A stretch of 63,664 nucleotides of DNA, the filler included, from Nitrospirota bacterium (GTDB lineage: Bacteria > JACPQY01), in the NCBI GenBank assembly GCA_016180645.1. It is 3 parts of 3 records of this genome, joined end to end, with 100 filler letters (N's around TTAATTAATTAA, not from the genome) between each part and the next. Parts side by side here need not be neighbours in the genome. Positions count along the whole stretch, not along the records: positions 36,498 to 63,664 come from JACPAV010000042.1; 2 more parts are not named here. One strand, written 5' to 3'. Position 1 is the stretch's first letter. Each line of letters begins with the position of its first letter. The notes beneath the pieces are model-generated. The model did no database searches and was not told the DNA's origin. It saw nothing but the letters and a program-made list of their open reading frames with translations. The translations under genes were made by a program, and so were the position numbers. Below, piece after piece: positions 5,416-61,947 of this stretch.

Positions 5416-5417
5416 CG

Positions 5418-6092: not shown

Positions 6093-6094
6093 GA

Positions 6095-6880: not shown

Positions 6881-6968
6881 GGGGCCATATTAGGGAAAAA
6901 GGAATCGGTATGGAAGGTAGGCGGGTGGCTCAGCGGTTCCAATCCGCCGGAAGGCGCAAAGAGGGGTG

Positions 6969-7050
6969 TGCCGCGGGCGAGATTTGAACTCGCACGGGTT
7001 TCCCCGCCACCCCCTCAAGATGGTGTGTCTGCCAATTCCACCACCGCGGC
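6969..7050 (-). tRNA. tRNA-Leu(GAG), CCA not encoded
   Basis: GCCGCGG acceptor stem, D-arm GGAATTGGCAGAC, anticodon arm CCATC-TTGAGGG-GGTGG, long variable arm, T-arm GCGAG-TTCAAAT-CTCGC. Confidence 0.95.
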
Positions 7051-7146
7051 ATCTGGCTCAACATCCGGCCCGCTCGAGCCGGGAGGGAGTGGGCTCAAGA
7101 TACTCCCGACTTGCATCGGTTTCAACCCGGCGACTACACGGCTCGG

Positions 7147-8301
7147 TTACTTCGGGGACGTAAGCGCCATCAGAACGGCGCCGAGGCCGTAGTCAACGTC
7201 ATCCTTTTGAGGAACGGCGGCATACTTCTCGAAACTCCCGGGAACGGTTCCGGTGGAAGTGCCGCCAACGACGGCCATTCCATCCCGCCGAATGATTCGG
7301 CCCTTGATGGCGGAGAGAGCACGGCCGCTCACCACGGCGGCGTCGGCCTCATCCACCAGCCCCAATGCCGCTCCCCGGATGAGACCGTCCGCGAAGAGCG
7401 CGGTCGCGGACGTTTCCAGATAGGACTCCCCCGGGCGATTCAGCACCGTCCACCACAATCCGCCTTCGTCCTGAGTGGCGACAACGGCCGAGAGCAGCCG
7501 GGATGCGATCCGCTCGATTTCGGACCGCTCGACATGTGAACGCGGCATGACTTCCAAAAATCGGGGCACGATGTTCGCAATCCATCCGTTACCTCTTGCC
7601 CAAAACACGGGATCGGAGGGGACCGGCGCTCCCTCGATCAACGCGTGGCGGAAAAAACCGCCGGCGTCCTGAAGACTCACCGAGAAGATCCGAATCTGTG
7701 ATGCAAAAAGATCCCATACCGCCGGGTCATCGAGGGTTCGCCCGCGTTCCAGGAGGAAACTTCCAAACATGAACAAGGAATCGACCCAGAGTTGGACCGA
7801 CCCGCTCGCAAAAATCCCCAGATGGCTGATGCCGCCGGAGGGCGTCCGCGGCGCCTCCTCGGTCAGATAGAGCCAAGCCCGATCGGATAGAGCTAGGAGT
7901 TCCGGATCACACGACCACCGTGCCACTCGAGTGGCAGCGGCTATTGGGGCAACATTGTCGCTCCAGATCGGCTTGTAGCCTCGCGCATGATGTCTCGCCC
8001 AGGCCTCGACGTAGGTGCGGTACGCGGAATCGCCCGTGGCCTCGTACAGATCCAGAATGCCGTACGCCAGCACAGCGGGTCCCCAATCCCACGCGAGCGT
8101 TTCCGGCGCGTGTCGTTTCATCCAACTGTCCGCCAACTCTCTGGCCAACGCCTCTTCGGCCAATGGCCGCGGCGTCGGGATTGGCGCGGGGCGGCATTCG
8201 GAACGGTTGTTTCCCTGAACCCCCTCTCCGCCGCCGCCACACGCACTCACGAGAATTCCCATAAGTGCCACAAGAGCGATCCGCGACGGTCGCATGCTCA
8301 T
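7147..8301 (-). CDS. Lipoprotein glycoside hydrolase of family 88/105 (unsaturated uronyl hydrolase-like)
   Basis: Lipobox VSAC; WDW, LWVDSLFM, FWARGNGW, YLETSATA and YGLGA motifs. Confidence 0.85.
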   Translation of the reverse strand: MSMRPSRIALVALMGILVSACGGGGEGVQGNNRSECRPAPIPTPRPLAEEALARELADSWMKRHAPETLAWDWGPAVLAYGILDLYEATGDSAYRTYVEAWARHHARGYKPIWSDNVAPIAAATRVARWSCDPELLALSDRAWLYLTEEAPRTPSGGISHLGIFASGSVQLWVDSLFMFGSFLLERGRTLDDPAVWDLFASQIRIFSVSLQDAGGFFRHALIEGAPVPSDPVFWARGNGWIANIVPRFLEVMPRSHVERSEIERIASRLLSAVVATQDEGGLWWTVLNRPGESYLETSATALFADGLIRGAALGLVDEADAAVVSGRALSAIKGRIIRRDGMAVVGGTSTGTVPGSFEKYAAVPQKDDVDYGLGAVLMALTSPK

Positions 8302-10325
8302 CGAGATCTGGCCACCAACTTGCGCGAGGGCTTTTCGAAATCCAACACCAATCTGCGCCCTTCAATCGCAATGGTCGTCTGGGTCTCCCCGAAAGGCTGC
8401 CGGGCGAAGAGGTTGTCCCAGCGATCGTAGGGACCGATGTCCACCGGCGAGCTCTTGACCCTCATCGGCCCCGTCAAACCCACTTCGACCGGACCGGCGG
8501 ACGGAGATTCATACTGAACCAAATCGCCGATATTCACTTGCGCCTTGGAAATCACCCCGCAAAACTCATCGAATCCCCCCCACTCCCCTGCGCTCCCCAT
8601 TTCCACGATCCACACGTTCGAGGGCGATGGCGCTATCAACTCGTAGTCATTCTTCCCGGTCCAAGATGTGGGTTGTTGCGAATACAGCGCGACGTAGCCG
8701 TTGCCCTTCCGGCCCACGGTCCAGGATCCGAACTGCCGTACCTCGTCGAACCGGTTCCGTGGGAAATAGGCATGCGTGTACTCCGAAGTCACCCACGAGT
8801 CGACCCGTTCGTTCGCATCCCGACGGTATTGGATCACACCGACATTCCTGTAGAACGTGCCCCTCGGCATCCAGCTCCCGATCCAATCTCCTGCAAAGGT
8901 CTGATCGATCCCCAGTCCCGCCAGCTTGCTCGGCGCCGTGGTGAACACGTAGGCCGAATCGTCCAGCGTAGCTTGCCACATATGCGTCTGCGCTCCCCAG
9001 AAGCCCGGATTGTAGTCCTGCGCGCCGGAGAGCTGGTAATCCGGCGTTCGATACGTATACGTGCTCATCGATTCCAACGCGATTCCGCGCGAGAGCGGTT
9101 CTAATCCCTTCGCAAAATCGTACAGCTTGCCGGAAGAGGCCAGAGTCCGGAGCAATCCCCGCATCTCCTCCGGAAGATCGCCGAACAGGAAACCATTCCA
9201 GAGATTGAAGTCGCTGATCATGTTGACCGCGCCCGTAGCCACCGGCGGGGCGATGAGCGCGACCATGCCCGCCCAAAATGTAATGTCGTCAGGCTCCTCG
9301 TAGCTGATTCCCCACCGCGGGCCGTCGGCCACGTTGATGCCGTCGCGCTGGCGATGCTCGTGGCGCTCGCGGGTCGCCGATGCCACCTCCTCGATCACCT
9401 CCGGCGTCCAATAGCTACCACTCGTCGAAAGGAACGCACCTGAGAAATTGCCGGGCGATTCGTACCGCCCAAGGCCAAGCATGACCCAGGCCGCCTCCCG
9501 CGTGGAATCTCGTTGTCCATCGAGAAGATGCTCCGGATACGTGCGGCCGTGGACCGTTGCGAACAAACCGGCATACATGTTGTTCAGAAGATCGAAGGCC
9601 AGGAGATCGAGCACTATGGCTGCCTTCACACGGATTCGGTCGTTTTCCGCAAAATCCACCAAGTTGACGAGGGGCGGGATGTCCTCGTTGAAGTACACGT
9701 TGGAATGCCACTCCGAGAAGCCAAACCTACCGCGGAAATCCAGCCAGCGCTCCATCCGGCTCTCCGCGTGGCGGAGATGATCCCGGCCCGTCATCCCCGC
9801 GTTCGGGAAAATCCGGTCGGGCCAGAGCTGGCCCGCGAGGAGTTCGCTGGAATGAAACAATGCCTGATGGTTTTCCGACCAGTAGGCCATCTTGTCCTCG
9901 CCCGGTTCGTCCAACCAGTACTTGAAGTTGACAACGCTTTCTTCGATCAAGGCGCGCACGTTGAGAGGCAGCGAGTGAGTTTCCCGGTCGAGGTAGAGCA
10001 TCCGAACGAACGCGGCGACCGAAAAGTCGGAGGTGTCCTCGCGTCGCGCCACCTTCTCCGCGGCCTTCCTAATCGGTTCCAAATCGACCTCGCCGCCTCT
10101 CGCCATCCGGCAGATTTGCCCGTAGAGGCCGCCTTTGCCCGGCGCGTTCCCTTGGAAACAGTAATCCAGGTATTCCGCCTGCCTCGCTCGATACGATTCG
10201 GTCGGCGGCGGAGATCCTTCGGCGAGGAAGGGGTCCCCACGCTTGCCGCCTGAGAACCCATCGCAAGCCGGATGCATCGCCCCAGCAACCGGCAGGAACA
10301 AGATCAATGCTGAGCGGAATTTCAC
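8298..10325 (-). CDS. Conserved-looking exported/lipoprotein of unknown function, possibly a polysaccharide lyase-like enzyme
   Basis: Signal peptide with Cys; WSENHQ, FSEWHSNVY and HGRTY blocks; stop overlaps the start of the GH88/105 gene. Confidence 0.6.
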   Translation of the reverse strand: MKFRSALILFLPVAGAMHPACDGFSGGKRGDPFLAEGSPPPTESYRARQAEYLDYCFQGNAPGKGGLYGQICRMARGGEVDLEPIRKAAEKVARREDTSDFSVAAFVRMLYLDRETHSLPLNVRALIEESVVNFKYWLDEPGEDKMAYWSENHQALFHSSELLAGQLWPDRIFPNAGMTGRDHLRHAESRMERWLDFRGRFGFSEWHSNVYFNEDIPPLVNLVDFAENDRIRVKAAIVLDLLAFDLLNNMYAGLFATVHGRTYPEHLLDGQRDSTREAAWVMLGLGRYESPGNFSGAFLSTSGSYWTPEVIEEVASATRERHEHRQRDGINVADGPRWGISYEEPDDITFWAGMVALIAPPVATGAVNMISDFNLWNGFLFGDLPEEMRGLLRTLASSGKLYDFAKGLEPLSRGIALESMSTYTYRTPDYQLSGAQDYNPGFWGAQTHMWQATLDDSAYVFTTAPSKLAGLGIDQTFAGDWIGSWMPRGTFYRNVGVIQYRRDANERVDSWVTSEYTHAYFPRNRFDEVRQFGSWTVGRKGNGYVALYSQQPTSWTGKNDYELIAPSPSNVWIVEMGSAGEWGGFDEFCGVISKAQVNIGDLVQYESPSAGPVEVGLTGPMRVKSSPVDIGPYDRWDNLFARQPFGETQTTIAIEGRRLVLDFEKPSRKLVARSR

Positions 10326-10394
10326 GGCGCCCGCATCGTAGCACAGCTCACGCGGTCCTTTGACATTCCTCGGACGCTGTCATATTCAGAATGG

Positions 10395-11390
10395 ATGCCG
10401 CAAACAGCCATCATCGGCACGGGACACCACGTCCCGCCGCGCGTCGTGACCAACGACGACCTGGCGAAGCTGATGCCCACGTCGGACGAATGGATCACCC
10501 AGCGCACCGGCATCAAAGAACGTCACTATTCCGATGGCGAAAACGGATCCGATCTTGCGAAAATCGCATGCGAACACGCCTTGGAAGCCGCGGGCAGGAA
10601 GGCCGAAGATGTCGAACTCATCATCTACGCCACGCTCTCGGCCGATCACGAGTTTCCCGGCAGCGGCTGCTTCCTCGAACCCAAACTGGGAGTCAAGCCG
10701 GGGACACCGGCATTGGACATCCGCAACCAATGCTCCGGGTTTCTATACGGTCTGCACGTGGCGGACGGTCTGATCCGGCAGGGCCTCTACAAGACGGTCC
10801 TGCTCGTGGGCGCGGAGGTCCACTCGCACGGCTTGGAATTCACGGAGCGGGGACGGGACGTGGCGGTGATTTTCGGCGACGGCGCCGCCGCGGTCGTGCT
10901 CTCGCCCACGGAGGACAACGGACGCGGCCTGCTCGCATCCGCCATCCACGCCGATGGCCGGTTCGCGCGGGATCTCTGGCTCGAAGCACCCGGATGCTAC
11001 AGCAAGCCCCGGGTGAATCTGAAAGATATCGAAGACGGCCGCCATTTCCCGCGCATGGATGGAAAGAAGGTCTTTGTGAATGCCATTCAGAAAATGCCGG
11101 AAGTGATCGGCGAGGTCCTAGCCAAGACGGGGCACAAGATCGAAGACATCGACTTGTTCATTGCGCATCAGGCCAATCTTCGGATCTGCGACGCGGTGGC
11201 CCAACGCCTCGGACTGCCCCCCGAGAAGATGTACAACAACATCCAGCGCTACGGGAACACTACCGCTGCTTCGATTCCGCTCGCACTGGATGAATGCGTT
11301 CGCGCCGGGCGGGTGAAGAAAGGCGATCTCCTCTGCTTCGCCGCTTTCGGCGCCGGCTACACCTGGGGCGCCGCGCTCCTGCGCTGGTAG
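10395..11390 (+). CDS. fabH: Beta-ketoacyl-ACP synthase III
   Basis: TSDEWITQRTGI, NQCSGF (Cys), FGDGA, HQANLRI (His), YGNTTAAS (Asn). Confidence 0.93.
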   Translation: MPQTAIIGTGHHVPPRVVTNDDLAKLMPTSDEWITQRTGIKERHYSDGENGSDLAKIACEHALEAAGRKAEDVELIIYATLSADHEFPGSGCFLEPKLGVKPGTPALDIRNQCSGFLYGLHVADGLIRQGLYKTVLLVGAEVHSHGLEFTERGRDVAVIFGDGAAAVVLSPTEDNGRGLLASAIHADGRFARDLWLEAPGCYSKPRVNLKDIEDGRHFPRMDGKKVFVNAIQKMPEVIGEVLAKTGHKIEDIDLFIAHQANLRICDAVAQRLGLPPEKMYNNIQRYGNTTAASIPLALDECVRAGRVKKGDLLCFAAFGAGYTWGAALLRW

Positions 11391-29649: not shown

Positions 29650-29749
29650 NNNNNNNNNNNNNNNNNNNNNNNNNNNNNNNNNNNNNNNNNNNNTTAATTA
29701 ATTAANNNNNNNNNNNNNNNNNNNNNNNNNNNNNNNNNNNNNNNNNNNN
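29650..29749. other. Assembly gap with artificial all-frame stop linker
   Basis: N-run containing TTAATTAATTAA. Confidence 0.98.
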
Positions 29750-36397: not shown

Positions 36398-36497
36398 NNN
36401 NNNNNNNNNNNNNNNNNNNNNNNNNNNNNNNNNNNNNNNNNTTAATTAATTAANNNNNNNNNNNNNNNNNNNNNNNNNNNNNNNNNNNNNNNNNNNN
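36398..36497. other. Assembly gap with artificial all-frame stop linker
   Basis: N-run containing TTAATTAATTAA. Confidence 0.98.
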
Positions 36498-42728: not shown

Positions 42729-43313
42729 ATGGCCCTCAAACATCTCATCCTGGCGCGGCTCATGCGCCGTCCCGCCCACGGCTATGAGCTGCACCACGAG
42801 CCCCTTCAGCCGCTCCACCCCGATTTTGGAGTAACCGAGGCGCACATCTACGCGTCCCTCCGATCCTTGGAGAAGAACGGCTACGTGCGGCATCGATCCG
42901 TCCGCCGGGGGAAATTCCCGCAGCGCATGAGCTACAGCATCACGTCCAAAGGCAGGAAGTACCTGCGTGTCTGGGCCAAGGGCCTCCAGGAGGAGCCACC
43001 CGAGGCGGTCTTTGGCCGTTCTCTTTGGCATCCCTTGGGCGCACGCCTTTCTGTTCTGCTGACGTTGGGATCGAAGCCATCGCCGGAAACCCTTCGTTCC
43101 GCTGTCCTAGCTGCGCAAAATCGGATCCGGCAATACCGATCTCTCCTGGCTGTTCGCCGTTCCGTTCACCCGTCCACGCGGATCCTCCTGCTTGGCGGCT
43201 TGGCCTTGGAGAAGGCCGGCCTATCGTGGTTGAGGACGGTCCACGGGGAGGGTGGGCTTCGCGGGCGATCGCACTCGCGGACCCCGTCACGGCCAAAGAA
43301 GCGGCGGAGTTGA
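42729..43313 (+). CDS. PadR family transcriptional regulator
   Basis: LKHLILARL...HGYEL, IYASLRSLEKNG, YSITSKGR. Confidence 0.9.
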   Translation: MALKHLILARLMRRPAHGYELHHEPLQPLHPDFGVTEAHIYASLRSLEKNGYVRHRSVRRGKFPQRMSYSITSKGRKYLRVWAKGLQEEPPEAVFGRSLWHPLGARLSVLLTLGSKPSPETLRSAVLAAQNRIRQYRSLLAVRRSVHPSTRILLLGGLALEKAGLSWLRTVHGEGGLRGRSHSRTPSRPKKRRS

Positions 43314-43337
43314 CAAGCTTCATATACCGCGTATAAT
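43310..43337 (+). promoter_or_regulatory. Consensus sigma70 promoter of the recombinase gene
   Basis: TTGACA-N16-TATAAT. Confidence 0.7.
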
Positions 43338-43375
43338 GGCTGTTTCATACGGTACATGAGCATTCCGGAGCGAAG

Positions 43376-44302
43376 GTGAAAGTCACTGCGGCTATTGAGG
43401 AGTTCCTGGACTACGTCCAAGTCGAGCGTGGTCTGAGCGCCACCACCCTGAAGAACTACCGCCGCTGGCTGGAGCATTTACAACTATGGCTCAAGCAGAA
43501 GGGTCCGGGTGATATCGAAATCAAGGATCTGAGGAGTGATGTCATCTGGAAGTACCGGCTCTATCTCGCCGGTCGGCCGAGGGCCAACAAGCCGGGAGCC
43601 TTGTCGCGCACAAGCCAAAGGTACTTCTTGATTGCTTTGCGCACAATGCTTCGATACCTGACCAAACGCGGCGTCGCGGTGTTGGGTCCGGAGCAGATCG
43701 ATCTTCCCAAACCGGCACCGAGGCAGATCAAGTTCCTGGATGATCGCTCCGTAGAGCGATTGCTTGCTGCTCCCAAGGTCGAGACGCGGCAGGGACTGCG
43801 AGACCGTGCGCTTTGTGAGGTGATGTTTTCCACGGGACTTCGGGTGTCCGAACTGTCCGGATTGGATCGAGACCGGGTGAATGTGAGCGACGGTGAATTC
43901 TCGGTAACCGGGAAAGGCGGCCGGACGCGGGTGGTATTTCTATCGGAAGAGGCTCGTCAATGGCTCACGAAATACCTGAAGGCGCGGAAAGACGATGGGA
44001 AGGCTCTTTTCGTAACCGCCAGGGGAAAGCCCGGATCTCGCCGATGGGCGAAGCGGTTATCGATCCGGGCCATCCAGGACCTCATCAAGCATTATTGCCG
44101 GTTGGCGGGAATCACTCTGCCCGCCAGTCCTCACACGCTCAGGCACAGTTTCGCAACGGATCTTCTGAGCCACGGTGCCGATTTGAGGTCGGTGCAGGAA
44201 CTGTTGGGCCACAAGAACGTGGCGACGACGCAGATCTACACCCATCTGACGAATCCGCAGTTGCGCGACGTTCACCGGCGATTCCATCGCGGCGGGCGGT
44301 AG
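43376..44302 (+). CDS. XerC/XerD-like tyrosine recombinase
   Basis: Intact R (TGLRVSE), K (GKGG), HxxR (PHTLRH), H (LLGH) and Y (TQIYTH); N-terminal SAM-like domain. Confidence 0.95.
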   Translation: MKVTAAIEEFLDYVQVERGLSATTLKNYRRWLEHLQLWLKQKGPGDIEIKDLRSDVIWKYRLYLAGRPRANKPGALSRTSQRYFLIALRTMLRYLTKRGVAVLGPEQIDLPKPAPRQIKFLDDRSVERLLAAPKVETRQGLRDRALCEVMFSTGLRVSELSGLDRDRVNVSDGEFSVTGKGGRTRVVFLSEEARQWLTKYLKARKDDGKALFVTARGKPGSRRWAKRLSIRAIQDLIKHYCRLAGITLPASPHTLRHSFATDLLSHGADLRSVQELLGHKNVATTQIYTHLTNPQLRDVHRRFHRGGR

Positions 44303-44384
44303 CCGGAAAATAAGTCAATATTCAAGATTGACCCCCTGCCCTATTCGCTCAGTATAGCACGCCCCGACCGGCCGAAAGTTTCCC

Positions 44385-44434
44385 ACGGAAGGCCGAGGAC
44401 GGGAACGGGGGTGAGGCGGTTGATGGTCGGGCCG
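44385..44434 (-). repeat. Direct-repeat copy of the 3' end of gene 44706-50936
   Basis: 46/50 nt identical to 44708-44757. Confidence 0.9.
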
Positions 44435-44436
44435 GC

Positions 44437-44520
44437 TTATGCCCGCTTCTTGGTTGGGATCAGGGCGATCACGCCCAAGATGAGCGTGACGAGAGACATG
44501 AAAACGAGTGCTTTTACCAT
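44437..44520 (-). CDS. 27-aa single-TM peptide (below the ORF-track cutoff)
   Basis: MVKALVFMSLVTLILGVIALIPTKKRA; ATG abuts the upstream stop; AAAGGCGG RBS-like sequence. Confidence 0.6.
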   Translation of the reverse strand: MVKALVFMSLVTLILGVIALIPTKKRA

Positions 44521-44706
44521 CTAGTCATCGCCGCCTTTTCTCCAGAAGTACCAACTGATCACGAAGAGAAGTATAACATTCACGAGTCCCACCGGCAAGA
44601 ACCACCATTTCCATTGTGGATTGGAGGCGAATCCGAAGATGAAAACTGCGAAGGCAACGGCGATCAGAGTCAGACAAAGCTTTGAGACCTCGCGGAACCA
44701 TTTCAT
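44521..44706 (-). CDS. 61-aa two-TM membrane protein
   Basis: Two hydrophobic helices; TAATG stop/start overlap with the giant gene. Confidence 0.7.
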   Translation of the reverse strand: MKWFREVSKLCLTLIAVAFAVFIFGFASNPQWKWWFLPVGLVNVILLFVISWYFWRKGGDD

Positions 44707-47700
44707 TACGGCAGGCCGACGACGGGAACGGGGGTGAGGCGGGTGATGGTCGTGCCGTCGCCAATTTGTCCTCTATAGTTCCACCCCCAGCATCGCGCGG
44801 TGCCATCGGCCACCACAGCGCAGGAGTGCCGTCCACCCGCGACCAACCCAACCGAATTGGACATATTCGAAACCTGCACCGGTGTGCTCTTGCCAGCCGT
44901 GGTTCCATCACCGAGTTGCCCGTTGCTGTTGTCTCCCCAGCACTTGACAGTGCCGTCCGCGAGCAACGCGCAGTTATGATCATGGTGCCCTATGACGGCA
45001 ACCGCGGCAGTGAGACTTGAGACAACGGTGGGCAAAGTTTTCCCGAGACCGCTGCCATCACCCAGCTTGCCTGCCGTGTTCTGCCCCCAGCACTTCACGA
45101 TACCGGTTGATAGAATGGAGCAGGTGTGCTGGTAGCTGGCGCTGATTCCCACCACGGCGGAAAGGCTTGCAACCGGGATTGGCGTGAGCCGTTGGATGGT
45201 CGTCCCGTCTCCGAGTTGTCCATTTACGTTCCAACCCCAACACATGACCGTGCCATCCGATTTGAGCCCGCAGGTGTGAGTATCTCCCGCAGAAATGCCA
45301 ACCAGTCCAGAGAGGGACGGCACGGCTGCAGGAGTCTTCTTGGTCGTCAGGGTCCCGTCACCAATTTGCCCATAGTTATTCGCCCCCCAGCACTTCGCGG
45401 TGCCATCGGAGATGACCGCGCAGACGTGACCCGAAACGATAGTTTCGTCTCCTCCACAGTCCATGGCGATGACGCCGGTTAGCGTGGATACTGCGGCCGG
45501 CGAGTACCGATTTGTCGTTGTTCCATCGCCAAGCTGTCCATTGTTGTTCTCGCCCCAACATCGTACCGTTCCATCAGACCCGAGCGCGCACGAATAGTAC
45601 GCGCCACCGCAAATCGCCGTTGATGACGAAAGGGAGCTTACTTGGACAGGCGTTGATCTGTTGCTGGTCGTGCCGTCTCCGAGCTGTCCGTCGGAATTCC
45701 CGCCCCAGCATTTTGCCGTCCCGTCCGAGAGAAGCGCACAGACATGGCCTTCTCCCTCGGCCAGGCCAAGTCTCCACGGGCGGCCCGGGCCGCCGCGGCC
45801 GGAGGAGGATTCGTGGAGGCGTGGGAGTTTCACGCCGAGGGGACCGCTGAGGTTGGTGACGGCGACCGGCACCATGGTTTCGTTTGTTGTACCGTCTCCG
45901 AGAAGCCCGACGGTGTTGTTTCCCCAGCACCTTGCTGTCCCATCTGAAAGAACAGTACATGCGTGAACGTCCCCTGCCGCGAGAGCGACGGCGCCGCTTA
46001 GGTTGGAGACCACCACCGGCGTACTCCTGTCTATTGTCGTCGCATCGCCAAGCTGACCAACATTGTTTTTGCCCCAACATTTCACAGTCCCATTTGAAAG
46101 GATAGAACAAGTAAAGGCACTGCCAGCCCAAATGTCTACCGCACCCGTTAGAGAGGATACGGGCACCGGTGTGATCTTGTCCACAGTCGTTCCGTCGCCC
46201 AATTGGCCATATGCGTTGTATCCCCAGCATTTCACGGTACCGTCCAAGATCAAGGAACAGGTGTATTGACTACCCCCCGCAATGGTGACAGCGCCGGTTA
46301 GACTCAACACGGCTACGGGCGTATTCCTATCTACTGTCGTTCCATCGCCCAACTGGCCAAGGTTGTTGAACCCCCAGCATTTCGCTGTGCCGTTCGAGAT
46401 AAGGGAACAAGCGTGGGCGTCTCCCCCCGTGACTGCGACGCCGCCAGACAACGTGGAAACGGCGACTGGTGTGGGTCTAGACGAGCCTAAGGAGTACAAC
46501 GACGTTCCGTCGCCAATTTGGCCGGTGAAATTGTATCCCCAGCATTTGACAGTACCGTCTGAAAGAAGCGCGCAGCTATGATTGCCCCCCCCCGCGACTG
46601 CCACGGCGCCGGATAGGCTGGACACGACTGCGGGCGTCGGCTTATCCGCCGTCGTGCCATCCCCGAGTTGGCCGGCACCGTTGGATCCCCAGCATTTTAC
46701 CGAGCCGTCCGACATTAGGCCACAGGTGTGGTGGATCCCTGCCGCAACGGCGATCGCACCGGACAGGGTGGACACAGCTAGCGGCATGTTTCTATCCAGC
46801 GTCGTACCGTCGCCTAATTGGCCATAGTCGTTCCAGCCCCAGCATTTGACGGTTCCGTCGGCGGCCAGCACGCAGGTGTGATCGCTACCTGCCGTGACGG
46901 CCTGGATGTTTCCACCGGTTGGGCCGCCACCACCGGAAGTTGTCGCGTTCGCTTCGTTGGAGAAGGCGGAGTTGTTGGCGCCGGTATAGGCGTAGACGCG
47001 GTAGAAGTATTGGGTGGAGGGGGTGAGGCCGGCGATGCTCATGGTAATTACGTTGGCGGAGGCGGGCCCAAGGTACGCGTACGATCCCCCTGCCCCGATT
47101 TTCTGGTCGACCTTGAAGCCGTCTTCGTTGGCGGAGTTGTCGGTCCAGCTCAGGTTGATCTGAGTGGACGAGACGGCAGTCGCGGTCAATCCGCTCGGCG
47201 CGGCGGGCGTGCAGACGCCGCCCTCGTCCGTGCTCCCGTCGCAGTTGTTGTCGATTCCGTCGCAGATTTCGATTCCTGGATTACCCACCGTGGCCGAGCA
47301 TTGAGTCGCCGTCCCATCGGCTTTGCACACGAAGGTCCCGGAAGACTGACACGCCCCCTGCCCTGCGGTGCAGGCTTGCCCCTTGTTGACGAAGTCCTCA
47401 TCGCTCGAAGCGTCGCAGTCGTTGTCGAGGTTGTCGCAAAGTTCAGCGCTAGGCGCCAGGCTCGAGGCGCAAACAAGAGAACCACTTGTGCAGGTTTGCG
47501 TGCCTGCCGCGCAAACGCCGGGCTGGGCCGTTGTGCAGCTTCCGCCGCCACTCACCCCATTGTCGATCGTTCCGTTGCAGTCATTGTCCAGCCCGTCGCA
47601 GAGTTCCGATGTCGGGAGGATTTCTCCGGTGCAGGTGCCCCAGAGGCCGCCGGAGCAGGTCTGGGAGCCGGTTTTGCAGGCACCGATCGTGTTCGTCCCG

Positions 47701-50700
47701 CTGGGACCGCTGTAACAGACTTGGGTGGTCCCATTCGTGCATTGACAGATCTCGTCGATCTTCCCGTTGCAGTCGTTGTCGATCCCGTCGCCGCAGACCT
47801 CGCTCGTCTGGGCCAGAGTTTGCACGCACACCAGAAGCCCCGACTGGCACTGTTGAGTCCCGCCCGAACAGATGCCGGTCTTAGTCGTGGAGCAGAAGGA
47901 CCCGCCCGTATTCTCGTCCACCTTTCCATCGCAGTTGTTGTCGAGGCCGTCGCACATTTCGGCGCCAGGCGCCAGGCTCGAGGCGCAAGCAAGAATTCCG
48001 GCGGAGCATTTCATCGTGCCGGCGGCGCACACGCCAAGGGCGGTAGTCGAGCAGGAGGAGCCGCCGAGCCCGTCGTCCACCTTCCCGTCGCAGTTGTTGT
48101 CGAGGTTGTCGCAGATTTCCACGTTCCCGGGGAACTTGGCCTTGTTGGCGTCGTCGCAGTCACCGGGCTTCGCGACGGCCACGTACCCGGCGGTCGGAGC
48201 GCAACCTTGAACAAATCCACCGTCCGTGTAGCCATCGCCGTCCGCGTCCTTGTAGCTGATGGCGCTTTGAGGAACGTCGTCCACCTTTCCGTTGCAGTCG
48301 TTGTCGGCCCCGTCGCAGACTTCAGTTCCTTTGGGAAAGGCTTTCGCGTTGGCATCGTCGCAATCGACTCCCGCCACGAATCCATCGCCGTCCTTGTCCT
48401 CGCCCACCTGGATCTCCGCCGTGGCCGTGCCGCTCCCTTTCTTGGGATCTTCAACCACGACGCTCAGGTTGTACTTGCCGCTCTCGGAAGGCGCCGTCCA
48501 TTCCGCCTGGGGATCATCGCCTTTGTAGCTCGTCGGCGCCTTCTTCTTTCCGGGATTCTCTTTCACCTTTTCCAACTTTCCACCGGATGCGACCCACGCG
48601 TAGCTCAGCTTGTCCCCGTCCGGATCAGAAGCCGTCACGCTCACCACGAGGCTCTCTCCCGGCGATGCGATCTTCTTGGGGATGGAAAGCTCTCCCACGG
48701 TGGGTGGGCTGTTGATGTCGATCGATTTGTCGACTACGACGCAGGCCCCGCAGGCCGCCGCCCCGCCCGTCTCGACCTCCTCATCCGCTTCCACGTCCGA
48801 TCCGCCGCCGCCCTTTGCGCTGATGCTGTGTTTCACTTTGACTTTCACTTTCTGTTTCGTCGGCGCGATCACGCAATACTTCCCGTTCGCATCCGTGGCC
48901 ACCATCTGGCTCCCCACGCGCACCGAGGCGCCGTTGACCGCCTTCCCCTTCTGATCGGTGATCGTGCCGCTCACGCAGGAGTCTCCAACCTCCATGACAA
49001 TGTCGGCGAGAACGCACTTGGTCTGTCCTCCGCCGCAGTTGCCGCCGCCCACGATCTTCACCTTCTGCGATTTCTTATGATTCTTGCTCTTCCCGCGATC
49101 GTAGTAGTTGAAGTTGAGGTCCACTTCCGCCGGCGCCGTCTCGAGACAGTAATTCCCGCCCTGATCGCTGGCGGCGTACGATGAGCCGGCCATGACGGAG
49201 GTGTTCTTGAGCAGGTTCCCGGCGTCATCCTCGATCTTGCCCCGCACACAGCCGACGTCGGCCTTTTTCACCTCGACGACTCCGATCTCCACCGGTGGGG
49301 CCGACACGCACTCACCCGGCCCGGGCGTAAAGCCCGGCACGGCGATCGTCTGCTTCGCGGGGGCAAATTTGAGGTAGGACTGGGGGTAGTACGCCGCCAT
49401 GGGATTCTGCGATATCGTGAGATCGACGGCGTCCGCCGCCGCGAGCGCCAGGCTGAACGCGCCCTTGTCGTCCGTCGTGGCAGAGGTTCCACCGCCATTG
49501 ACGACCGCGCCCGCCACCCCCTTGCCACCGGATTCCTGGACTTTCCCGCGCACTTCCCGGAGTTTTGGCGGCGCGATGAGGATATCGCCCACGTCCGTGC
49601 ACGCCTCCGACGGCGTCACGCACGTGGAAGCCGTGTCGGGCGCCGTCACGTCCTTCCGGGCCAGGATCTCCTTCATCTTGATCGTGCCCCAGCTCGGGTT
49701 GTCCACCCCCTGCCCGGCCTGGATCTCCAGGGTACCGTTTCGCATGACATCCAGACAGAACTTTCCGTCATCGCCCGTCGGGAGGATCTTCTTGTTTGAC
49801 CATCCGTAGGTGCCGTTGCAAAAAGCCGAGGGGTAACTCTTTCCTTGCGAACAGACGTGGAGGTTCTTGACCGCCTCCCCGCACGCGTCCACGATTCGGC
49901 CGCGCACGCAGTGATGGGTATCGACAGCCTGGTCCACGTTCCACCACGAGAAGTGCTTCGCCTTGAATTGCATGAACTGGACGCCGCTGTCCTCCACCAC
50001 GGAGGCCACGACCGGATTCCCCGCCTCGTCCAGCTCGGGGACCCACGTCCCGAGCGCCTCGTCGATGTACCAGACTTCGATGGAGTCGCCGATCACATAC
50101 GGCGCGCCGGTCTTGGGATTGAGGGACCCGGTGGGAATTTTGAGCTTCACGTCCGCGGGGCTGTTGAGCTTCGGGATGGCGTTGCCTGCTTCATCGCGAA
50201 GCGTGATGTTCGCGTACACCACCGAAGCGAGTTCGACCGATTCGCCCACGGTCTCGCCATTCGCCCGCTTCACTGCCCGTTTCGATGCGCCGCGGACGCC
50301 CCCGCGCACCCCGCCCCGAACGCCTTGGACGGCCACGAAGCCTCCGGGGAATTCGCTGGACGCTTCCCGCGGGTTGCCGACGACCACTTCCGCCTTAACG
50401 GGACCGCTGGTCCCCAACGCGGCGGCGGCATTCGGGATCTGGACGGAAATCGAATTGTCCGGCGCTTTCAGCTCGGCCGTGCCGGATTCGGAAATGGCCA
50501 GGGACTGAACAAATTGGACCGGCTGAACCGAAAGCGGAACTTGTTTCGTTCCCGCCGCCAGCTCCATCACCTGCGCTTGAGGGGCGTAACCGGCCATGTC
50601 CGCCACGACGGAGACGTTGCCCGAGGGCGACTCGACGGCGAAGTTCCCCTGCCCGTCCGTCGTGGCCGAAGCGATCTTGGTCGGGTCGTCGATGGACGTG

Positions 50701-50936
50701 ACGCGAATGCTGGCACCCGCGAGAGGGGATTTGGATTCCGAGTCGGAAAGCTGGCCGACCAGTTGGGTGGTGCCCTTGGCAGCCGAAGATGCCTCCGACG
50801 CACCGCCGGACAGCTTTTTCCCCATGATCCGGCCTCCCTTGGATTCGCAAGAAGAGAGGCTGATGAGCAGAGCGGCAGCCAAGAGAATTGTGATAGCAGA
50901 AGCCAAGCTAAGCGGGCTCCTCCCCCGAGGATTCAT
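44706..50936 (-). CDS. Giant surface lipoprotein 1 (carboxypeptidase-regulatory-like domains, PKD/Ig, MopE-type Cys repeats, FN3, two RCC1-type propellers)
   Basis: Lipobox SLSSC; repeated ExCDGxDNxCxGxxDE; FN3 (LSWTDNSANEDGF); about 14 CWGxNxxGQLGDG repeats. Confidence 0.88.
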   Translation of the reverse strand: MNPRGRSPLSLASAITILLAAALLISLSSCESKGGRIMGKKLSGGASEASSAAKGTTQLVGQLSDSESKSPLAGASIRVTSIDDPTKIASATTDGQGNFAVESPSGNVSVVADMAGYAPQAQVMELAAGTKQVPLSVQPVQFVQSLAISESGTAELKAPDNSISVQIPNAAAALGTSGPVKAEVVVGNPREASSEFPGGFVAVQGVRGGVRGGVRGASKRAVKRANGETVGESVELASVVYANITLRDEAGNAIPKLNSPADVKLKIPTGSLNPKTGAPYVIGDSIEVWYIDEALGTWVPELDEAGNPVVASVVEDSGVQFMQFKAKHFSWWNVDQAVDTHHCVRGRIVDACGEAVKNLHVCSQGKSYPSAFCNGTYGWSNKKILPTGDDGKFCLDVMRNGTLEIQAGQGVDNPSWGTIKMKEILARKDVTAPDTASTCVTPSEACTDVGDILIAPPKLREVRGKVQESGGKGVAGAVVNGGGTSATTDDKGAFSLALAAADAVDLTISQNPMAAYYPQSYLKFAPAKQTIAVPGFTPGPGECVSAPPVEIGVVEVKKADVGCVRGKIEDDAGNLLKNTSVMAGSSYAASDQGGNYCLETAPAEVDLNFNYYDRGKSKNHKKSQKVKIVGGGNCGGGQTKCVLADIVMEVGDSCVSGTITDQKGKAVNGASVRVGSQMVATDANGKYCVIAPTKQKVKVKVKHSISAKGGGGSDVEADEEVETGGAAACGACVVVDKSIDINSPPTVGELSIPKKIASPGESLVVSVTASDPDGDKLSYAWVASGGKLEKVKENPGKKKAPTSYKGDDPQAEWTAPSESGKYNLSVVVEDPKKGSGTATAEIQVGEDKDGDGFVAGVDCDDANAKAFPKGTEVCDGADNDCNGKVDDVPQSAISYKDADGDGYTDGGFVQGCAPTAGYVAVAKPGDCDDANKAKFPGNVEICDNLDNNCDGKVDDGLGGSSCSTTALGVCAAGTMKCSAGILACASSLAPGAEMCDGLDNNCDGKVDENTGGSFCSTTKTGICSGGTQQCQSGLLVCVQTLAQTSEVCGDGIDNDCNGKIDEICQCTNGTTQVCYSGPSGTNTIGACKTGSQTCSGGLWGTCTGEILPTSELCDGLDNDCNGTIDNGVSGGGSCTTAQPGVCAAGTQTCTSGSLVCASSLAPSAELCDNLDNDCDASSDEDFVNKGQACTAGQGACQSSGTFVCKADGTATQCSATVGNPGIEICDGIDNNCDGSTDEGGVCTPAAPSGLTATAVSSTQINLSWTDNSANEDGFKVDQKIGAGGSYAYLGPASANVITMSIAGLTPSTQYFYRVYAYTGANNSAFSNEANATTSGGGGPTGGNIQAVTAGSDHTCVLAADGTVKCWGWNDYGQLGDGTTLDRNMPLAVSTLSGAIAVAAGIHHTCGLMSDGSVKCWGSNGAGQLGDGTTADKPTPAVVSSLSGAVAVAGGGNHSCALLSDGTVKCWGYNFTGQIGDGTSLYSLGSSRPTPVAVSTLSGGVAVTGGDAHACSLISNGTAKCWGFNNLGQLGDGTTVDRNTPVAVLSLTGAVTIAGGSQYTCSLILDGTVKCWGYNAYGQLGDGTTVDKITPVPVSSLTGAVDIWAGSAFTCSILSNGTVKCWGKNNVGQLGDATTIDRSTPVVVSNLSGAVALAAGDVHACTVLSDGTARCWGNNTVGLLGDGTTNETMVPVAVTNLSGPLGVKLPRLHESSSGRGGPGRPWRLGLAEGEGHVCALLSDGTAKCWGGNSDGQLGDGTTSNRSTPVQVSSLSSSTAICGGAYYSCALGSDGTVRCWGENNNGQLGDGTTTNRYSPAAVSTLTGVIAMDCGGDETIVSGHVCAVISDGTAKCWGANNYGQIGDGTLTTKKTPAAVPSLSGLVGISAGDTHTCGLKSDGTVMCWGWNVNGQLGDGTTIQRLTPIPVASLSAVVGISASYQHTCSILSTGIVKCWGQNTAGKLGDGSGLGKTLPTVVSSLTAAVAVIGHHDHNCALLADGTVKCWGDNSNGQLGDGTTAGKSTPVQVSNMSNSVGLVAGGRHSCAVVADGTARCWGWNYRGQIGDGTTITRLTPVPVVGLP

Positions 50937-50942
50937 GCCCGA

Positions 50943-51015
50943 ATTGTGAGGAAAATTGGTATCAATGTCAAGGCAGAAATCACGCCAGGGGCGCCACTTG
51001 GTGACGGAGGTCACA
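50943..51015 (-). promoter_or_regulatory. Leaderless-type promoter with CRP/FNR-family box
   Basis: TGTGA-N6-TCACC, 28 nt, TTGACA-N17-CACAAT-N6-ATG. Confidence 0.75.
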
Positions 51016-57036: not shown

Positions 57037-60000
57037 GTGAAGTTGGTGGCGGATCTCTGGGCGCGGAGCGAGCTGGGTTGGGCTTCTCTCATCGCGATCT
57101 TCCTCGGGGGTGTGTTGCTCCTAAGCGTTTACGGCTGCGTGGGACAAGGGGGCGTCCTTGGCGGGCTTCCGATCGGTGAATCTGAATTGAAAATCACCGT
57201 GGATATTCCCCTCACTTCGCAACAGGCGGTGGCCATCGAGGGTGTGCGGGATGCGGTGGCGGATGTCTACTGGAACGACGCGCCGGTGGGGACGTCGGTT
57301 CGAGGCGCGGTGCGCGGTGGCGTGAGCGGTGGAGTTCGTGCGGCGGAGACCGGCGGTGTTCGCACAGGGGTCAGAGCGGCCCTCTCCCGCTTGGTGGCCT
57401 CCGGCCAGTCGCGGGACGGCCATGCCGTCTTGGCTCCGGTGCGGCCACGATTGAATCACCTTCCGGAACATGGGGACGGATCGGCGGTCCCCGAAGGCGG
57501 AACATCCACCGCAAGCGCAGAGGAGATACTTTTCTCGTTCGAGGTCACTTTCACGCTTCCCGTCAAGTCGGCGGCGGAAGGCACAGGTGCGTTGAACACG
57601 AAAGTCCGGTCGCGAACAAGACCGGAGGTGGCCTATGTGGATCTCAAAGTCAGGGTGGACGTGAAGGCGTCCGAGGCGGATCCCGCGCGCGTGGAGATCC
57701 TCTCCCAGGATGTCGGGTTCAACCAGGTGGAACTCCCGGACCTCGACGGCGACGGTGTGGCCACGCTCTTCGAGGTCGTTTCCAAGGGAGCAGATGCCGC
57801 CATGGATGCGGCGTCGAAACCGGATGAGACGACGCTCCAGTCGAAGCTGGAAAGCCTCAAGGCCGGGCTGGAGAATTCGCTCAAGGAGAGCGGATTTACG
57901 ACCGCGATCGTGATGGGCGAAGTGGATCTCACGCCGCCCGACACCCAGGTGGCGTCGAACGCCGAATCGCGAACGTCCGCGGAGGCCTACCGGTTTACGT
58001 TCACATGCAACCCCCAGGAAGGGGGAACTGCCGTGGGAGCGCAGAAGCCCGGGGCGGCCAATGTATCCTTTTGCGTCTATCGATGCTCCCTGGTGGGCCC
58101 GGCGGACACGTTCGATTTCAAGCCGTGCGACACCCCGTTCTCCCTCAGCCCGGCGAAGGAGGGTGACTACACCCTCGCCGTGAAGGCGGCTGACGAACTG
58201 GGGAATACGGATCAAACGCCGGCGACCGTTTCGTTCAAGGTCTTGCCGCCCGCCGTGTGCGGGAACGGGACGTGCGAGGCTGGGGAAACATCCGCCTCGT
58301 GCGCTGCGGACTGTCCCGCTCCGGACACGACGCCGCCAGATACCGCGCTCAGCGCGGCGAGTGGTCAGTTGCCAGTGGTCAGTGGTCAGTGGTTGAACAA
58401 GACGGACATCAGTTTTACCCTGACCAGCACCGAGGCGGGTTCCACGTTTCAATGCTCGACTGACAATGGCGCGTGGTCGGTCTGCGCGAGCCCATTCGTC
58501 CTGAGCCAGTTGAAGGACGGGCCGCGAACGTTCTCGGTCTACGCTGTCGACAAGTCGGGGAACAAGGACCCCACTCCGGCCGTGTTCACGTGGAGACTCG
58601 ATACCACGGCTCCGGATACAACCATCACGGTCAAGCCATCAGCGCTCAACAATCAGCCTTCCGCCTCCTTCGAGTTCTCGTGTTCCGATCCGGTAGGCGC
58701 ACCCTTTACGGGTGCGTCTTCGGACGCAGGCATGAAGCCTGCGGCTACCTGCACGTTTTTCTGCCAACTCGGCATCGGAGTCGCCGCGCTCTGCGCGTTC
58801 CCCTACTCTGCAACGGCTCTGCCCGAGGGATCCCAGACCTTCCAGGTTTATGCGCAGGACGCCGCGGGGAACAAGGACGCCACACCTGCCTCGGCCACGT
58901 GGGCGGTGGACATGACTGCGCCGGACACCGCGCTGAGCGCGGCGAGTGGTCAGTTGGCAGTGGTCAGTGGTCAGTCCACAAACAAGACGGAGATCACGTT
59001 TACGCTGAGCAGCCCCGATCCGTCGGTGACGTTCCAGTGTGCTCTCGACCTCGCTTTATTCTCCTCTTGCTCATCGCCCGCCACCTACAGCGCGTTGGCG
59101 GCGGGTAGCCACACGTTTGGCGCGCGTGCCGTGGATACGGCGGGGAACAACGACAGTACGCCTGTGACGTTCACCTGGAGCATCGACATCACGCCGCCGG
59201 ACACGGCTATCAGCGTTCAGCCGTCAGCGGTCAGCAATCAGACTTCCGCGTACTTCGAGTTCTCGTCACCGGAGGTTGGGGTGACGTTCCAGTGCGCCTT
59301 GGACGCAGGTGCGTTCGGAACGTGCACGTCGCCCTACTCTCAGGCGGCGTTGCCCGCGGGCGCTCACACATTCAAAGTTCGTGCCGTGGACGCCGTGGGC
59401 AACGCGGATGCGACGCCTGCCGAGGCGACGTGGACCATCGACCTCACCGCGCCGACGTTCAGCGGTCTTACGAGCGCGACGGCCATCTCCACCACGCAAA
59501 TCGACGTTGCGTGGACGGCGGCAACGGACAATGCCAGTGCCTCGTCCGCCATCGTCTACAAGATTTGTGCAAGCACTACCCCCGGCGCGTGCGCCGCGAA
59601 TTTTGTCGTTTACGCCACGACGAATGCGGGAGTCACGTCCTATTCCGCCACGGGCCTGACCCCTTCGGCCACCTACTACGTCGTCGTTCGCGCCCAGGAT
59701 CAGGTTGCGAACATCGACGCAAACATCGTCGAAAAATCGGCCGTCACGTGGGGAACCACCGGCGCCGCGCAGGCGATCACGAACCACCTCAGCAACCGCA
59801 CCTGCGCGCTTCTTTCGGATGGCACGGTGAAATGCTGGGGGTGGAACGACTATGGTCAGCTTGGGGATGGGACAACGGCCCAGAAGACGACTCCGGTGGC
59901 CGTTTCCACCCTTTCGGGCGCGGTCGCCGTGACGGGAGGGGATAGGCAGACCTGCGCGCTCGCCTCGGACGGCACGGTGAAATGCTGGGGATACAACTTC

Positions 60001-61947
60001 TATGGTCAGCTTGGGGATGGGACAACAGCCAATAAGACGACTCCGGTGGCCGTTTCCACCCTTTCGGGCGCCATCGCCGTGGCGGGAGGGATCAACCACA
60101 CCTGCGTGCTCGCCTCGAATGGCACGGTGAAATGCTGGGGATGGAACGCGAATGGTCAGCTTGGGGATGGGACGGTGGCAGACAAGACGACTCCGGTGGC
60201 CGTTTTCACCCTTTCGGGCGCGGTCGCCGTGGCGGGAGGGCTCTACCACACTTGCGCCCTCACCTCGGATGGATCGGTGAAATGCTGGGGATCCAACGGC
60301 AACGGTCAGCTAGGGGATGGGACGACGGCCCAGAAGACGACTCCGGTGGCCGTTTCCACCCTTTCGGGTGCGGTCGCCGTGGCGGGAGGGACCTACCACA
60401 CCTGCGCCCTCGCCTCGGATGGCACCGTGAAATGCTGGGGACGCAATCTCTATGGTCAGCTTGGGGAAGGGACGACGGCGGATAAGACGACTCCGGTGGC
60501 CGTTTTCACCCTTTCGGGTGCGGTCGCCGTGGCGGGAGGGACTTATCACACCTGCGCCCTTGTCTCGGACGGCACGGTGAAATGCTGGGGAGGCAACGGC
60601 GGTGGTCAGCTAGGGGATGGGACGACGGACCAGAGAACGACTCCCGTGGCCGTTTCCGCCCTTTCGGGTGCGGTCGCCGTGGCGGGAGGGAACGTCTACA
60701 CCTGCGCGCTCGTATCAGACGGGACCGTCAAGTGCTGGGGGGACAACTATTATGGCGGGCTTGGGGACGGAACCACCGCCAATCGCCTAACGCCCACCGC
60801 CGTAACTTCACTGTCAGGCCCGCTCGGTGTCAGGCTCCCCCGCCTCCACGAATCCACCGCCTCCGGCGCGCCGGCTCGACCGTTCCGCGAGGGTCTCTCC
60901 GGCGGCGGCGTTCACACTTGCGCAATCATCTCCAACGGCACGGCCAAATGCTGGGGCCAGAATGATCAGGGCCAACTCGGCGATGGCACCACGACCAACC
61001 GGCCCACACCTGTCCCCGTGTCGTCCCTTACGAGTGTCACAGGCATGGCCACCGGTCAATTCCACACCTGCGCTCTGGGCTCCGACGGGACCGCCAAGTG
61101 CTGGGGCGTAAATGGCAGCGGACAACTCGGCGACGGAACCAGCACCGGAAAGCTGCTGCCGACCGTCGTATCGACTCTGTCCAGCGCCATCAGTCTGAGC
61201 GCAGGGGCCAATCACACCTGCGCCTTGATGGCCGACGGCACAGCAAGGTGCTGGGGTGCAAACAGCGCCGGACAGGTGGGCGACACCACCGGGACCAATC
61301 GCCTCGTGCCCACGACTGTAACTTCGCTTACCACAGCCGTAGCGCTCATTGCGGGCGGCTACCACAATTGCGGGCTCCTGGCAAACGGAACCGTGAACTG
61401 CTGGGGGCGAGGGGCTGAAGGACAGACCGGAGACAATTCCGCGTCAACTCATTTCGCGCCGGCCGCCGTCTCCACCCTATCCGGAGTGGTAGCGCTGGCG
61501 ATGGGAGACTACCACTCTTGCGGCCTCCTTTCAGACGGCACGGTCAGATGCTGGGGACGCAATTCTCTCGGTCAACTGGGCGACGGCACGACAACGGATA
61601 GGCCCACTCCAATCGTCGTCTCAACGCTTACGGATGTGATTGCCACCGTCGCGGGTTCGGACCATACCTGCGCCCTGCTCTCCTCGGGACCGGTTCGTTG
61701 CTGGGGCGCCAATCAAGGGCAGCTCGGAGATGGGACCTCCATCGCGCGTGTCACACCTGTTTCGGTGGCGGGGATAACGGGGGTTGCAGGAATCACCGCG
61801 GGCGGTTCAGGCGGTGGATCAGGTCACTCGTGCGCCGTTCTTCCTGGCGGCACGGCCAAGTGCTGGGGACTCAACAATTCCGGCCAGCTCGGAGATGGAA
61901 CGACCGGCAGCAAATCCACTCCAGTCTCCATCACGAGCCTCCCGTAG
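57037..61947 (+). CDS. Giant surface lipoprotein 3 (Ig-like DxTPPDT repeats, Cys-rich motif, FN3, two RCC1-type propellers)
   Basis: Lipobox SVYGC; five D-x-T-[PA]-PDT...TFxVxAxDxxGN units; about 14 RCC1 repeats; start uncertain. Confidence 0.87.
58693..58748. repeat. Complete GTAG REP doublet inside a CDS
   Basis: GTAGGCGCACCCTTTACGGGTGCG-TCTTCGGA-CGCAGGCATGAAGCCTGCGGCTAC. Confidence 0.85.
59800..60790 (+). repeat. Near-identical 150-bp intragenic tandem repeats (RCC1 blades)
   Basis: TGCTGGGG recurs at 59833, 59983, 60133, 60283, 60433, 60583 and 60733. Confidence 0.92.

Follow-up and report, generated by a model that had tools for sequence, protein, structure and literature searches.

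A duplicated gene end around a micro-protein pair, probably a displaced tail, behind a giant RCC1-repeat gene of an uncultured Nitrospirota bacterium

How does the end of a gene come to stand twice, once in its place and once 323 nt further on, with two very small genes between the copies? The question is raised by a giant RCC1-repeat gene in the genome of an uncultured groundwater bacterium of the Nitrospirota (assembly GCA_016180645.1, here G000; 4.7 Mb in 65 contigs). The window, i.e. the whole stretch of 63,664 nt that was analysed, joins parts of three contigs (C56, C61 and C63) by N linkers at 29650–29749 and 36398–36497 (TTAATTAATTAA core), and repeats that involve a linker are artefacts; the locus itself lies well inside C63. 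An earlier note on this DNA had read the two copies as an attL/attR-like scar or an excisable cassette beside a recombinase gene. The best explanation, to which we assign a probability of roughly 0.7, is a displaced gene tail that was made by host recombination with no dedicated integrase.

The duplicated gene end and its surroundings

The two copies of the gene end (Table 1) are direct repeats that match at 46 of 50 positions at an offset of 323, with mismatches at 44389/44712, 44397/44720, 44420/44743 and 44430/44753, and with a longest identical block of 22 nt, which in the proximal copy occupies 44721–44742. On the minus strand, the proximal copy corresponds to the final 16 codons of the 2102-aa open reading frame (ORF) of the host gene, and extends one base beyond them at either end. 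The distal copy, read in the frame of the host gene, has TGG in place of TAA and continues for 14 extra codons to a stop at 44341–44343. The insert between the copies (273 nt) has a GC content of 0.498 against a mean of 0.608, which places it among the lowest 0.6% of 17,247 genome windows. It holds two ORFs, of 61 and 27 aa, the first of which shares one base with the stop codon of the giant gene, and the second of which begins directly after the stop codon of the first. The distal copy is separated by 82 nt from the stop codon of the recombinase gene (44302). The earlier note had described the repeat and its offset, the two membrane ORFs, the lost stop with its 14-codon continuation and a distance of ∼80 nt to the recombinase, and in all of this its account is confirmed. 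The stretch 43000–46200 is also present in one piece, and with no differences, in sequencing run X1, which may be this DNA's own source.

The match between the copies exceeds both chance and the background set by the RCC1 paralogs. Over 48 coding bases, the distal copy agrees with the adjacent tail at 44, as opposed to at most 37 for the other 25 RCC1 tails of the genome, and none of the 325 pairs in a tail–tail comparison among the RCC1 genes lies above 43/48. Among the four differences, one is synonymous, one is to the commonest residue at that position (15 of 26 tails), one is conservative (4 of 26) and one gives a residue that occurs in no tail. As three of them are allele-like and one is found in no tail, they fit two once-working alleles plus some decay. 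Variable repeats of diversity-generating retroelements lie at the 3′ ends of genes for such proteins, as does the repeat of this large surface-protein gene, so that a template/variable repeat pair at the protein C-terminus comes to mind. The probability of this is practically negligible, however, as one of the four differences is at an adenine with either copy taken as the template, the repeat is 50 nt long, and no reverse transcriptase family is seen among the 14 neighbouring ORFs scanned, the rest of the genome not having been searched.

A large gene family offers another source of a stray tail, namely that the distal copy is the remnant of a deleted tandem paralog, or that the gene end was duplicated locally and the pair inserted separately. 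The host does sit in a cluster of three RCC1 paralogs, the family has expanded to 33 RCC1-like genes in the genome, a recent duplicate would account for the 92% identity of the copies, and longer RCC1 relics (87–150 nt) exist elsewhere in the genome. We nevertheless consider this explanation unlikely. The tandem neighbour and the host are 44.5% identical at the protein level, and no pair of tails reaches the 44/48 observed here; moreover, the deletion must have taken ∼6 kb, halted 50 nt before the stop codon and spared the pair. The same scar is also found at single-copy genes, e.g. an atpD-like gene on C18. The deleted fourth paralog that the earlier note had set against its own proposal is thus disfavoured by the closeness of the distal copy to the adjacent tail.

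Table 1. Features of the locus (positions in the window;., no strand assigned)
Feature	Position	Strand	Basis
Host gene: giant exported protein, 2102 aa from first GTG	44706–51014	−	ORF, domain scan
Proximal repeat copy, presumed incoming (or recombinant) tail	44708–44757	−	Repeat comparison; polarity taken from the nested C13 locus
Two-helix membrane ORF, 61 aa, DUF6722-like	44521–44706	−	ORF, profile and relatives
One-helix ORF, 27 aa, partner of the 61-aa ORF	44437–44520	−	ORF; pairing recurs in genome
Unique low-GC insert, 273 nt	44435–44707	.	GC versus genome windows
Distal repeat copy: probable orphan (displaced) RCC1 tail, no start codon, stop changed to TGG	44385–44434	−	Repeat and tail comparison
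Identical block, 22 nt; crossover interval reproducing the X2 contig breaks	44398–44419	.	Simulation
Read-through of 14 codons plus stop; would join the giant gene after pop-out	44341–44385	−	Reading frame
Small palindromic dispersed repeat, outside the cassette	44314–44335	.	12 genome copies at at least 19/22 bases
XerC/D-like tyrosine recombinase, 308 aa, convergent, outside the repeats	43376–44302	+	Profile scores

The host protein combines carboxypeptidase-regulatory-like, MopE-type and FN3 domains with C-terminal RCC1 repeats. The drop in GC content at third codon positions in its RCC1 part (0.66 versus 0.81 at the N-terminus) was considered as the sign of a junction and rejected, three other paralogs being equally low. 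In the third giant gene (window 59795–60844), the RCC1 repeats are unusually alike (83–92%, 150-nt period), and this similarity points to recent internal expansion or conversion. The small palindrome, which sits between the stop codon of the recombinase gene and the orphan tail, is not a candidate dif site because it is multi-copy. A minus-strand extended −10-like box at 44351–44359, identified by eye and absent from the calls of the promoter scan, faces this palindrome with no gene behind it. The promoter and terminator scan itself returned a single weak promoter, within the 61-aa ORF, and two sites resembling terminators, near shuffle levels.

Tail copies elsewhere in the genome

The 3956 gene calls of the genome yielded 3053 genes for a search in which the last 42 coding bases had to recur with at least 35/42 matches, no further than 10 kb downstream and not inside another gene (sequences present in many copies were dropped, as were matches in the frame of another gene). 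A downstream copy of their own tail was found for 10 of these genes. Windows placed 60 and 120 nt further into the gene gave 3 and 2 such cases and mid-gene windows gave none; no tail copies were found on the upstream side, and gene heads yielded 2 and 1. The copies are therefore biased towards the gene end and the downstream side. The scar repeats are 37–99 nt long, with their ends on the stop codon or close to it. Their hosts are unrelated and their cargo is mixed, with hosts that translate as hsdS-like, hsdR-like and atpD-like genes and another recombinase (labels by reading). The 10 include a short tandem repeat at a gene end (C31, offset 57) and, on C38, a host that is itself a tyrosine recombinase; 6 of the 10 genes lie on contigs that contain no match to PF00589.

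Within the RCC1 family, a tail profile picks out 10 relics that lie outside RCC1 genes, as against none when the genome is reversed (an eleventh row, the contig-edge start of a gene on C35, was left out), and 5 of 26 RCC1 genes have an orphan tail no more than 600 nt behind them. The stop codon is kept in 8 of the 10 orphans and is TGG in 2, the one described here and another on C10. A gene on C20(−) exhibits the same layout of tail, pair and orphan, its pair consisting of a 70-aa two-helix and a 31-aa one-helix ORF of different sequences. A nested record is preserved on C13(+) at 58134–58554, where the gene end shares downstream DNA with the genes on C9 and C34, the first orphan has 93 nt at 94.6% in common with the DNA behind the gene end on C64, and a more decayed tail lies beyond. 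Hairpins of the repetitive extragenic palindrome type were carried along in this record (with C9, C34 and C64). The nesting implies that new ends are added beside the gene and old ones are pushed away, the newest being proximal and the oldest distal.

A displaced tail at the present locus could have arisen as follows. DNA of a close allele of the RCC1-repeat gene would have arrived with the micro-gene pair behind its stop codon. It may have been joined by homology on one side and by an illegitimate joint ∼50 nt before the stop codon on the other (homology-facilitated illegitimate recombination), or it may have entered as a small circle through a single crossover within the tail (Rhs-type two-step model). 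Either event would leave the end state that is observed, that is, an intact gene end, the pair directly behind it with a one-base stop–start overlap, and the old end downstream. The orphan would then have decayed, its stop codon changing to TGG and one residue to a form seen in no paralog, and the pair may now and then be lost when the two copies recombine or slip within the 22-nt block, for which the evidence is indirect (see below). The many similar RCC1 tails in the genome would make such events common in the family.

Several observations weigh against a displaced tail. Neither an empty ancestral allele nor a donor was found: the phylum is represented by two genomes, G000 and G001, of which the latter has no matching locus, and the metagenome loci, 80 in number and retained from 495 relatives of the recombinase, are distant (∼45–55% identical). 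The empty-site alleles for which the earlier note had proposed a check in relatives thus did not appear in either set. The other RCC1 orphans, unlike this one, resemble the adjacent gene no more than paralogs do (21–38/48), so that for the present locus a donor of the same gene, or gene conversion at a later time, has to be assumed. Outside this genome, orphan tails are rare: RCC1 loci of other genomes gave one clear case among 64 (the hit L172, a wrong-frame internal repeat, was left out), and G001 gave 0 of 8. A polarity test on the tail of the G001 xer gene came out at 110 versus 108 of 138 bases, with synonymous sites between G000 and G001 saturated, and one-sided recombination and circle integration are not separable here. 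On balance, we retain the displaced tail.

Further observations concern the RCC1 relics and the DNA behind RCC1 gene ends. Hairpin-like insertions of ∼19–31 nt, each different, occur in four relics (C10(+) ∼104540–104640, C13(+) ∼58295–58414, C20(−) ∼5426 and ∼17608). All four share the insertion point, which falls between an Asp and a Gly codon at 16 codons from the stop and is also where the distal copy of this locus starts, and this suggests a site preference of small palindromic elements. On C38(+) (5055–10999), a 1919-aa exported protein with a Kelch-like end (by reading) is followed by an RCC1 relic tail of >100 nt, possibly through a swap of the whole C-terminal propeller. Small genes stand behind other RCC1 ends (C20(−) 64610, C27(+) 41640, C13(−) 2300, C64(+) 8458, C9, C11 and C57) and read as toxin–antitoxin-like pairs, aspartyl-protease-like ORFs and short coiled-coil ORFs. 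An orphan tail lies behind an RCC1 gene of a Kofleriaceae genome at an offset of 2234 (L154). No paper on orphan tails at RCC1 genes was found in a literature search from which subscription journals were mostly absent and in which supplements were left unread.

The neighbouring recombinase and loss of the pair

The recombinase gene invites the reading that the repeats are the attL/attR scar of an integrative element, made by this enzyme or by an integrase in trans and since shrunk to two genes. Integrative elements restore the 3′ end of their target gene and leave a displaced copy, and an intact 3′ end plus a displaced copy is what is seen here. The residues R-K-H-R-H-Y, the motif set of tyrosine recombinases, are all in place (156, 180, 253, 256, 279 and 288), the gene ends close to the repeats, the genome contains 16 PF00589 matches, and sequencing run X2 (below) fits a deletion through the repeats. 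Long duplications of tRNA ends by site-specific recombination are mentioned in passages of Furuta, Abe and Kobayashi (2010, PMC2853133). The recombinase lies outside the repeats, however, and scores best, over its full length, as XerD (246 bits, cut-off 329.6) and XerC (236 bits, cut-off 335), both times under the cut-off; it is the sole strong Xer-like gene of the genome, with the next matches in the genome at 39% and 31%. In G001, a 74% identical xer gene stands behind an orthologue of the same padR neighbour (54.5% over 110 aa) and is followed by a convergent 491-aa ORF that is not RCC1 (one relative only). No RCC1 gene is near the recombinase in any of the 80 related metagenomic loci. The repeats lack inverted arms, the best arrangement having 5 of 11 complementary positions, with 974 and 997 of 1000 shuffles as good or better. 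Their folds do not rise above those of shuffles, and Rfam gave one match (E 0.18) far below cut-off. Scars of the same kind stand at unrelated genes, and the G001 xer gene is itself a scar target, a copy of its last 51 codons lying behind an inserted 234-aa ORF (L031:3717–4587, G001:C55).

As the gene lies outside the repeats, is XerC/D-like and keeps its padR synteny in G001 without an RCC1 gene, and as the repeats have no inverted symmetry, the neighbouring recombinase is probably a bystander and not the maker of the scar. The link that the earlier note drew to it is accordingly not upheld, the more so as scars stand at unrelated genes and mostly on contigs free of PF00589 matches. What survives of the attL/attR-like scar is an insertion scar with a duplicated gene 3′ end, and not an att pair in the integrase sense, for which we see quite a low probability. 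A neighbouring Xer gene should not be read as the cause of any nearby repeat.

An integron cassette array was likewise rejected, as the recombinase matches the integron integrase TIGR02249 with 97 bits (cut-off 265) at 228–299 alone, the repeats do not fold, and there is no notable Rfam match. The 234-aa ORF of G001 has a weak match to a homing-endonuclease-associated repeat (E 0.014, under cut-off). Orphan tails were found at 1 of 71 metagenomic xer loci; at L049:1734–2530 such a tail lies behind the xer gene at an offset of 733.

The fate of the pair in natural samples was followed in the four DNA runs that contain the stretch (X1–X4); all come from one groundwater study, three are possible sources of this DNA, and no RNA run is listed. 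Single contigs span the cassette in X1 and X3, and the contig of X4 reaches 44745. In X2, one contig ends at 44419, one spans 44390–44750 and one starts at 44721, with depths of 8.8, 7.3 and 10.3, i.e. lowest on the insert. Passages of 10.1101/2024.07.30.605881 describe the assemblies as based on 31-mers, with words seen once dropped and the graph simplified. In ten simulated variants, only a deletion that crosses over in the 22-nt block reproduces all three X2 pieces, whereas the remaining nine (a circle, crossovers in the four other intervals, and four point variants) fail. The predicted 38-nt junction record is absent among the X2 pieces listed, and the signature of a circle (breaks at 44427, 44398–44742 and 44713) is not seen among the pieces listed either. 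Of the signs that the earlier note had suggested looking for in reads, a deletion junction or a 323-bp circle, neither is seen among the listed pieces of the assemblies; the contig breaks fit the deletion. The X2 breaks thus provide indirect support for a pop-out of the pair through the repeats, with the signal in one of the four runs; the same picture would equally arise from a chimera formed in the library, from an error path pruned in part, or from an allele with a hybrid tail present alongside. If real, the deletion product is a recombinant with a 14-residue extension, and not the ancestral empty site.

A stronger claim would be that of a selected reversible switch, in which the pop-out drops the micro-proteins and lengthens the surface protein by 14 residues, giving two cell types. 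The frame of the distal copy does stay open after the crossover, the X2 breaks and the lower depth on the insert speak for it, and a second orphan (C10) has TGG at the stop position. We regard such a switch as very unlikely, given that the X2 signal is confined to one run of one study, that its junction record is not listed, and that a chimera or co-occurring allele gives the same graph. Pop-out also cannot be reversed once the circle is lost, the tails at the other orphans have diverged too far to recombine out easily, and TGG is one substitution from TGA or TAG. As to the excisable cassette of the earlier note, loss of the pair through the repeats is possible in principle, and the contig breaks of one assembly in four fit it; the 14 added residues are more simply explained by a decayed stop codon, as most orphans keep theirs. 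Two further leads from the runs were rejected: the share of 0.85 in X4 does not reflect a missing cassette, since X4 record 28 covers 43809–44745 and the gaps lie elsewhere, and assembly joints that link RCC1 repeats with unknown letters between them were set aside as paralog alignments.

The micro-protein pair and comparison with known systems

The 61-aa ORF aligns with DUF6722 (PF20482) over model positions 3–49 of 49 at 21.2 bits (E 3.4e-4), which misses the gathering cut-off of 27 and hence makes it DUF6722-like. Among its 8 matches are five short relatives at 41–52% identity, and four are near full length (41–48%). On such sequence evidence, the 61-aa product is taken to be a real protein. 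A single-sequence search found only the ORF itself, the neighbourhoods of its closest relatives included no locus from viral contigs or the five named genomes, and the Atlas placed it in unnamed clusters with a score under 0.9, which serves as a lead only. The family is single copy in the genome and has no meaningful score in G001; the 27-aa ORF has no sequence relative in its own genome. Pairs of a two-helix and a one-helix ORF are found six times in the genome by a hydropathy scan, and a seventh, frameshifted, lies behind the orphan on C35. Three of the seven stand directly behind an RCC1 tail or relic, and their mutual divergence implies separate acquisitions. In another phylum, 4 of 351 genomes give weak matches to the 61-aa profile, each then followed by a 34–38-aa hydrophobic ORF, and one of these relatives passes the DUF6722 cut-off (41.8 bits). 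Two of these four pairs lie at direct repeats of 43 bp, which extend over gene ends and have small cargo between them (L231:1753–1795/2957–2999 and L232:1683–1725/2181–2223). PADLOC matched none of 3 proteins, and no restriction or modification family was found for either ORF in Pfam, NCBIfam or PADLOC. A role of the pair as a small membrane toxin–antitoxin or defence system is a guess.

One may speculate, and we hold it rather improbable, that the ∼26 RCC1 gene ends are integrase-free landing sites for micro-protein pairs, toxin–antitoxin-like genes and hairpins, that the pair is a functional partner and that the X2 deletion reflects ongoing traffic. If this were true, uncultured bacteria would have a simple way of picking up micro-genes through the paralogous ends of their surface-protein genes, and the membrane pair would acquire a context that can be tested.

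The closest named family for the cargo is DUF6722, with which it shares a length of ∼60 aa and two predicted helices; the one-helix partner, obligate-looking here, is absent from the Pfam entry, and no paper naming DUF6722 was found in the literature search. As for the locus, integrative elements such as e14 in icd restore the 3′ end of the target gene, and the intact gene end on one side with a displaced fragment on the other is common to both cases. The difference is that no integrase lies between the repeats here and that the scars of the genome have no common target or core. The host family resembles that of bee-gut bifidobacteria, which carry 7–24 RCC1-repeat surface proteins per genome in tandem clusters that evolve by duplication and recombination (PMC4449606); RCC1-like genes are likewise many (33) and clustered in tandem here, whereas the bifidobacterial proteins are LPxTG-anchored and the passages that describe them mention neither orphan tails nor cargo.

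The nearest mechanistic parallel is long target duplication, as described in passages on Haemophilus inserts with 46-bp duplications (44/46 identity) that overlap a gene 3′ end and have no integrase (PMC2853133). The inserts described there are integrase-less and <20 kb long with imperfect direct repeats of >30 bp, to be compared with 273 nt, no mobility gene and 50 bp at 92% here. Those passages concern restriction–modification cargo and include an empty-site genome, whereas the present locus has a micro-protein pair and a wholly coding repeat. It works like long target duplication and is not a restriction–modification member.

The geometry is that of the displacement of rhs C-termini (Jackson et al. 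2009, PMC2935791) and of the sequential displacement at type VI secretion effector loci (Kirchberger et al. 2017, PMC5361080). In the parts of these papers that treat it, recombination via a conserved sequence near the gene 3′ end shunts the old end downstream with no integrase, orphans stack with the oldest furthest, and both circle and one-sided-homology models are proposed. Here, too, start-less same-strand 3′ fragments lie downstream of an intact gene, with stacking evident at C13 and presumed at this locus. In rhs, as those parts describe it, what is displaced is a variable toxin tip together with an immunity gene, and the protein receives a different C-terminal domain. The tail at the present locus is conserved and leaves the protein almost as it was, with the cargo placed after the stop codon. 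More like rhs is the C38 locus, where an RCC1 relic stands behind an end that is not RCC1. The locus shares the rhs geometry and is not an rhs or contact-dependent inhibition system. The mechanism is thus an ordinary one, a duplicated gene end around integrase-less cargo that is already in print, to which this locus adds a very small and clean example with a target unreported in the literature searched, a paralog family in the same genome that records the order of events, and a hint of ongoing cassette loss in a natural population.

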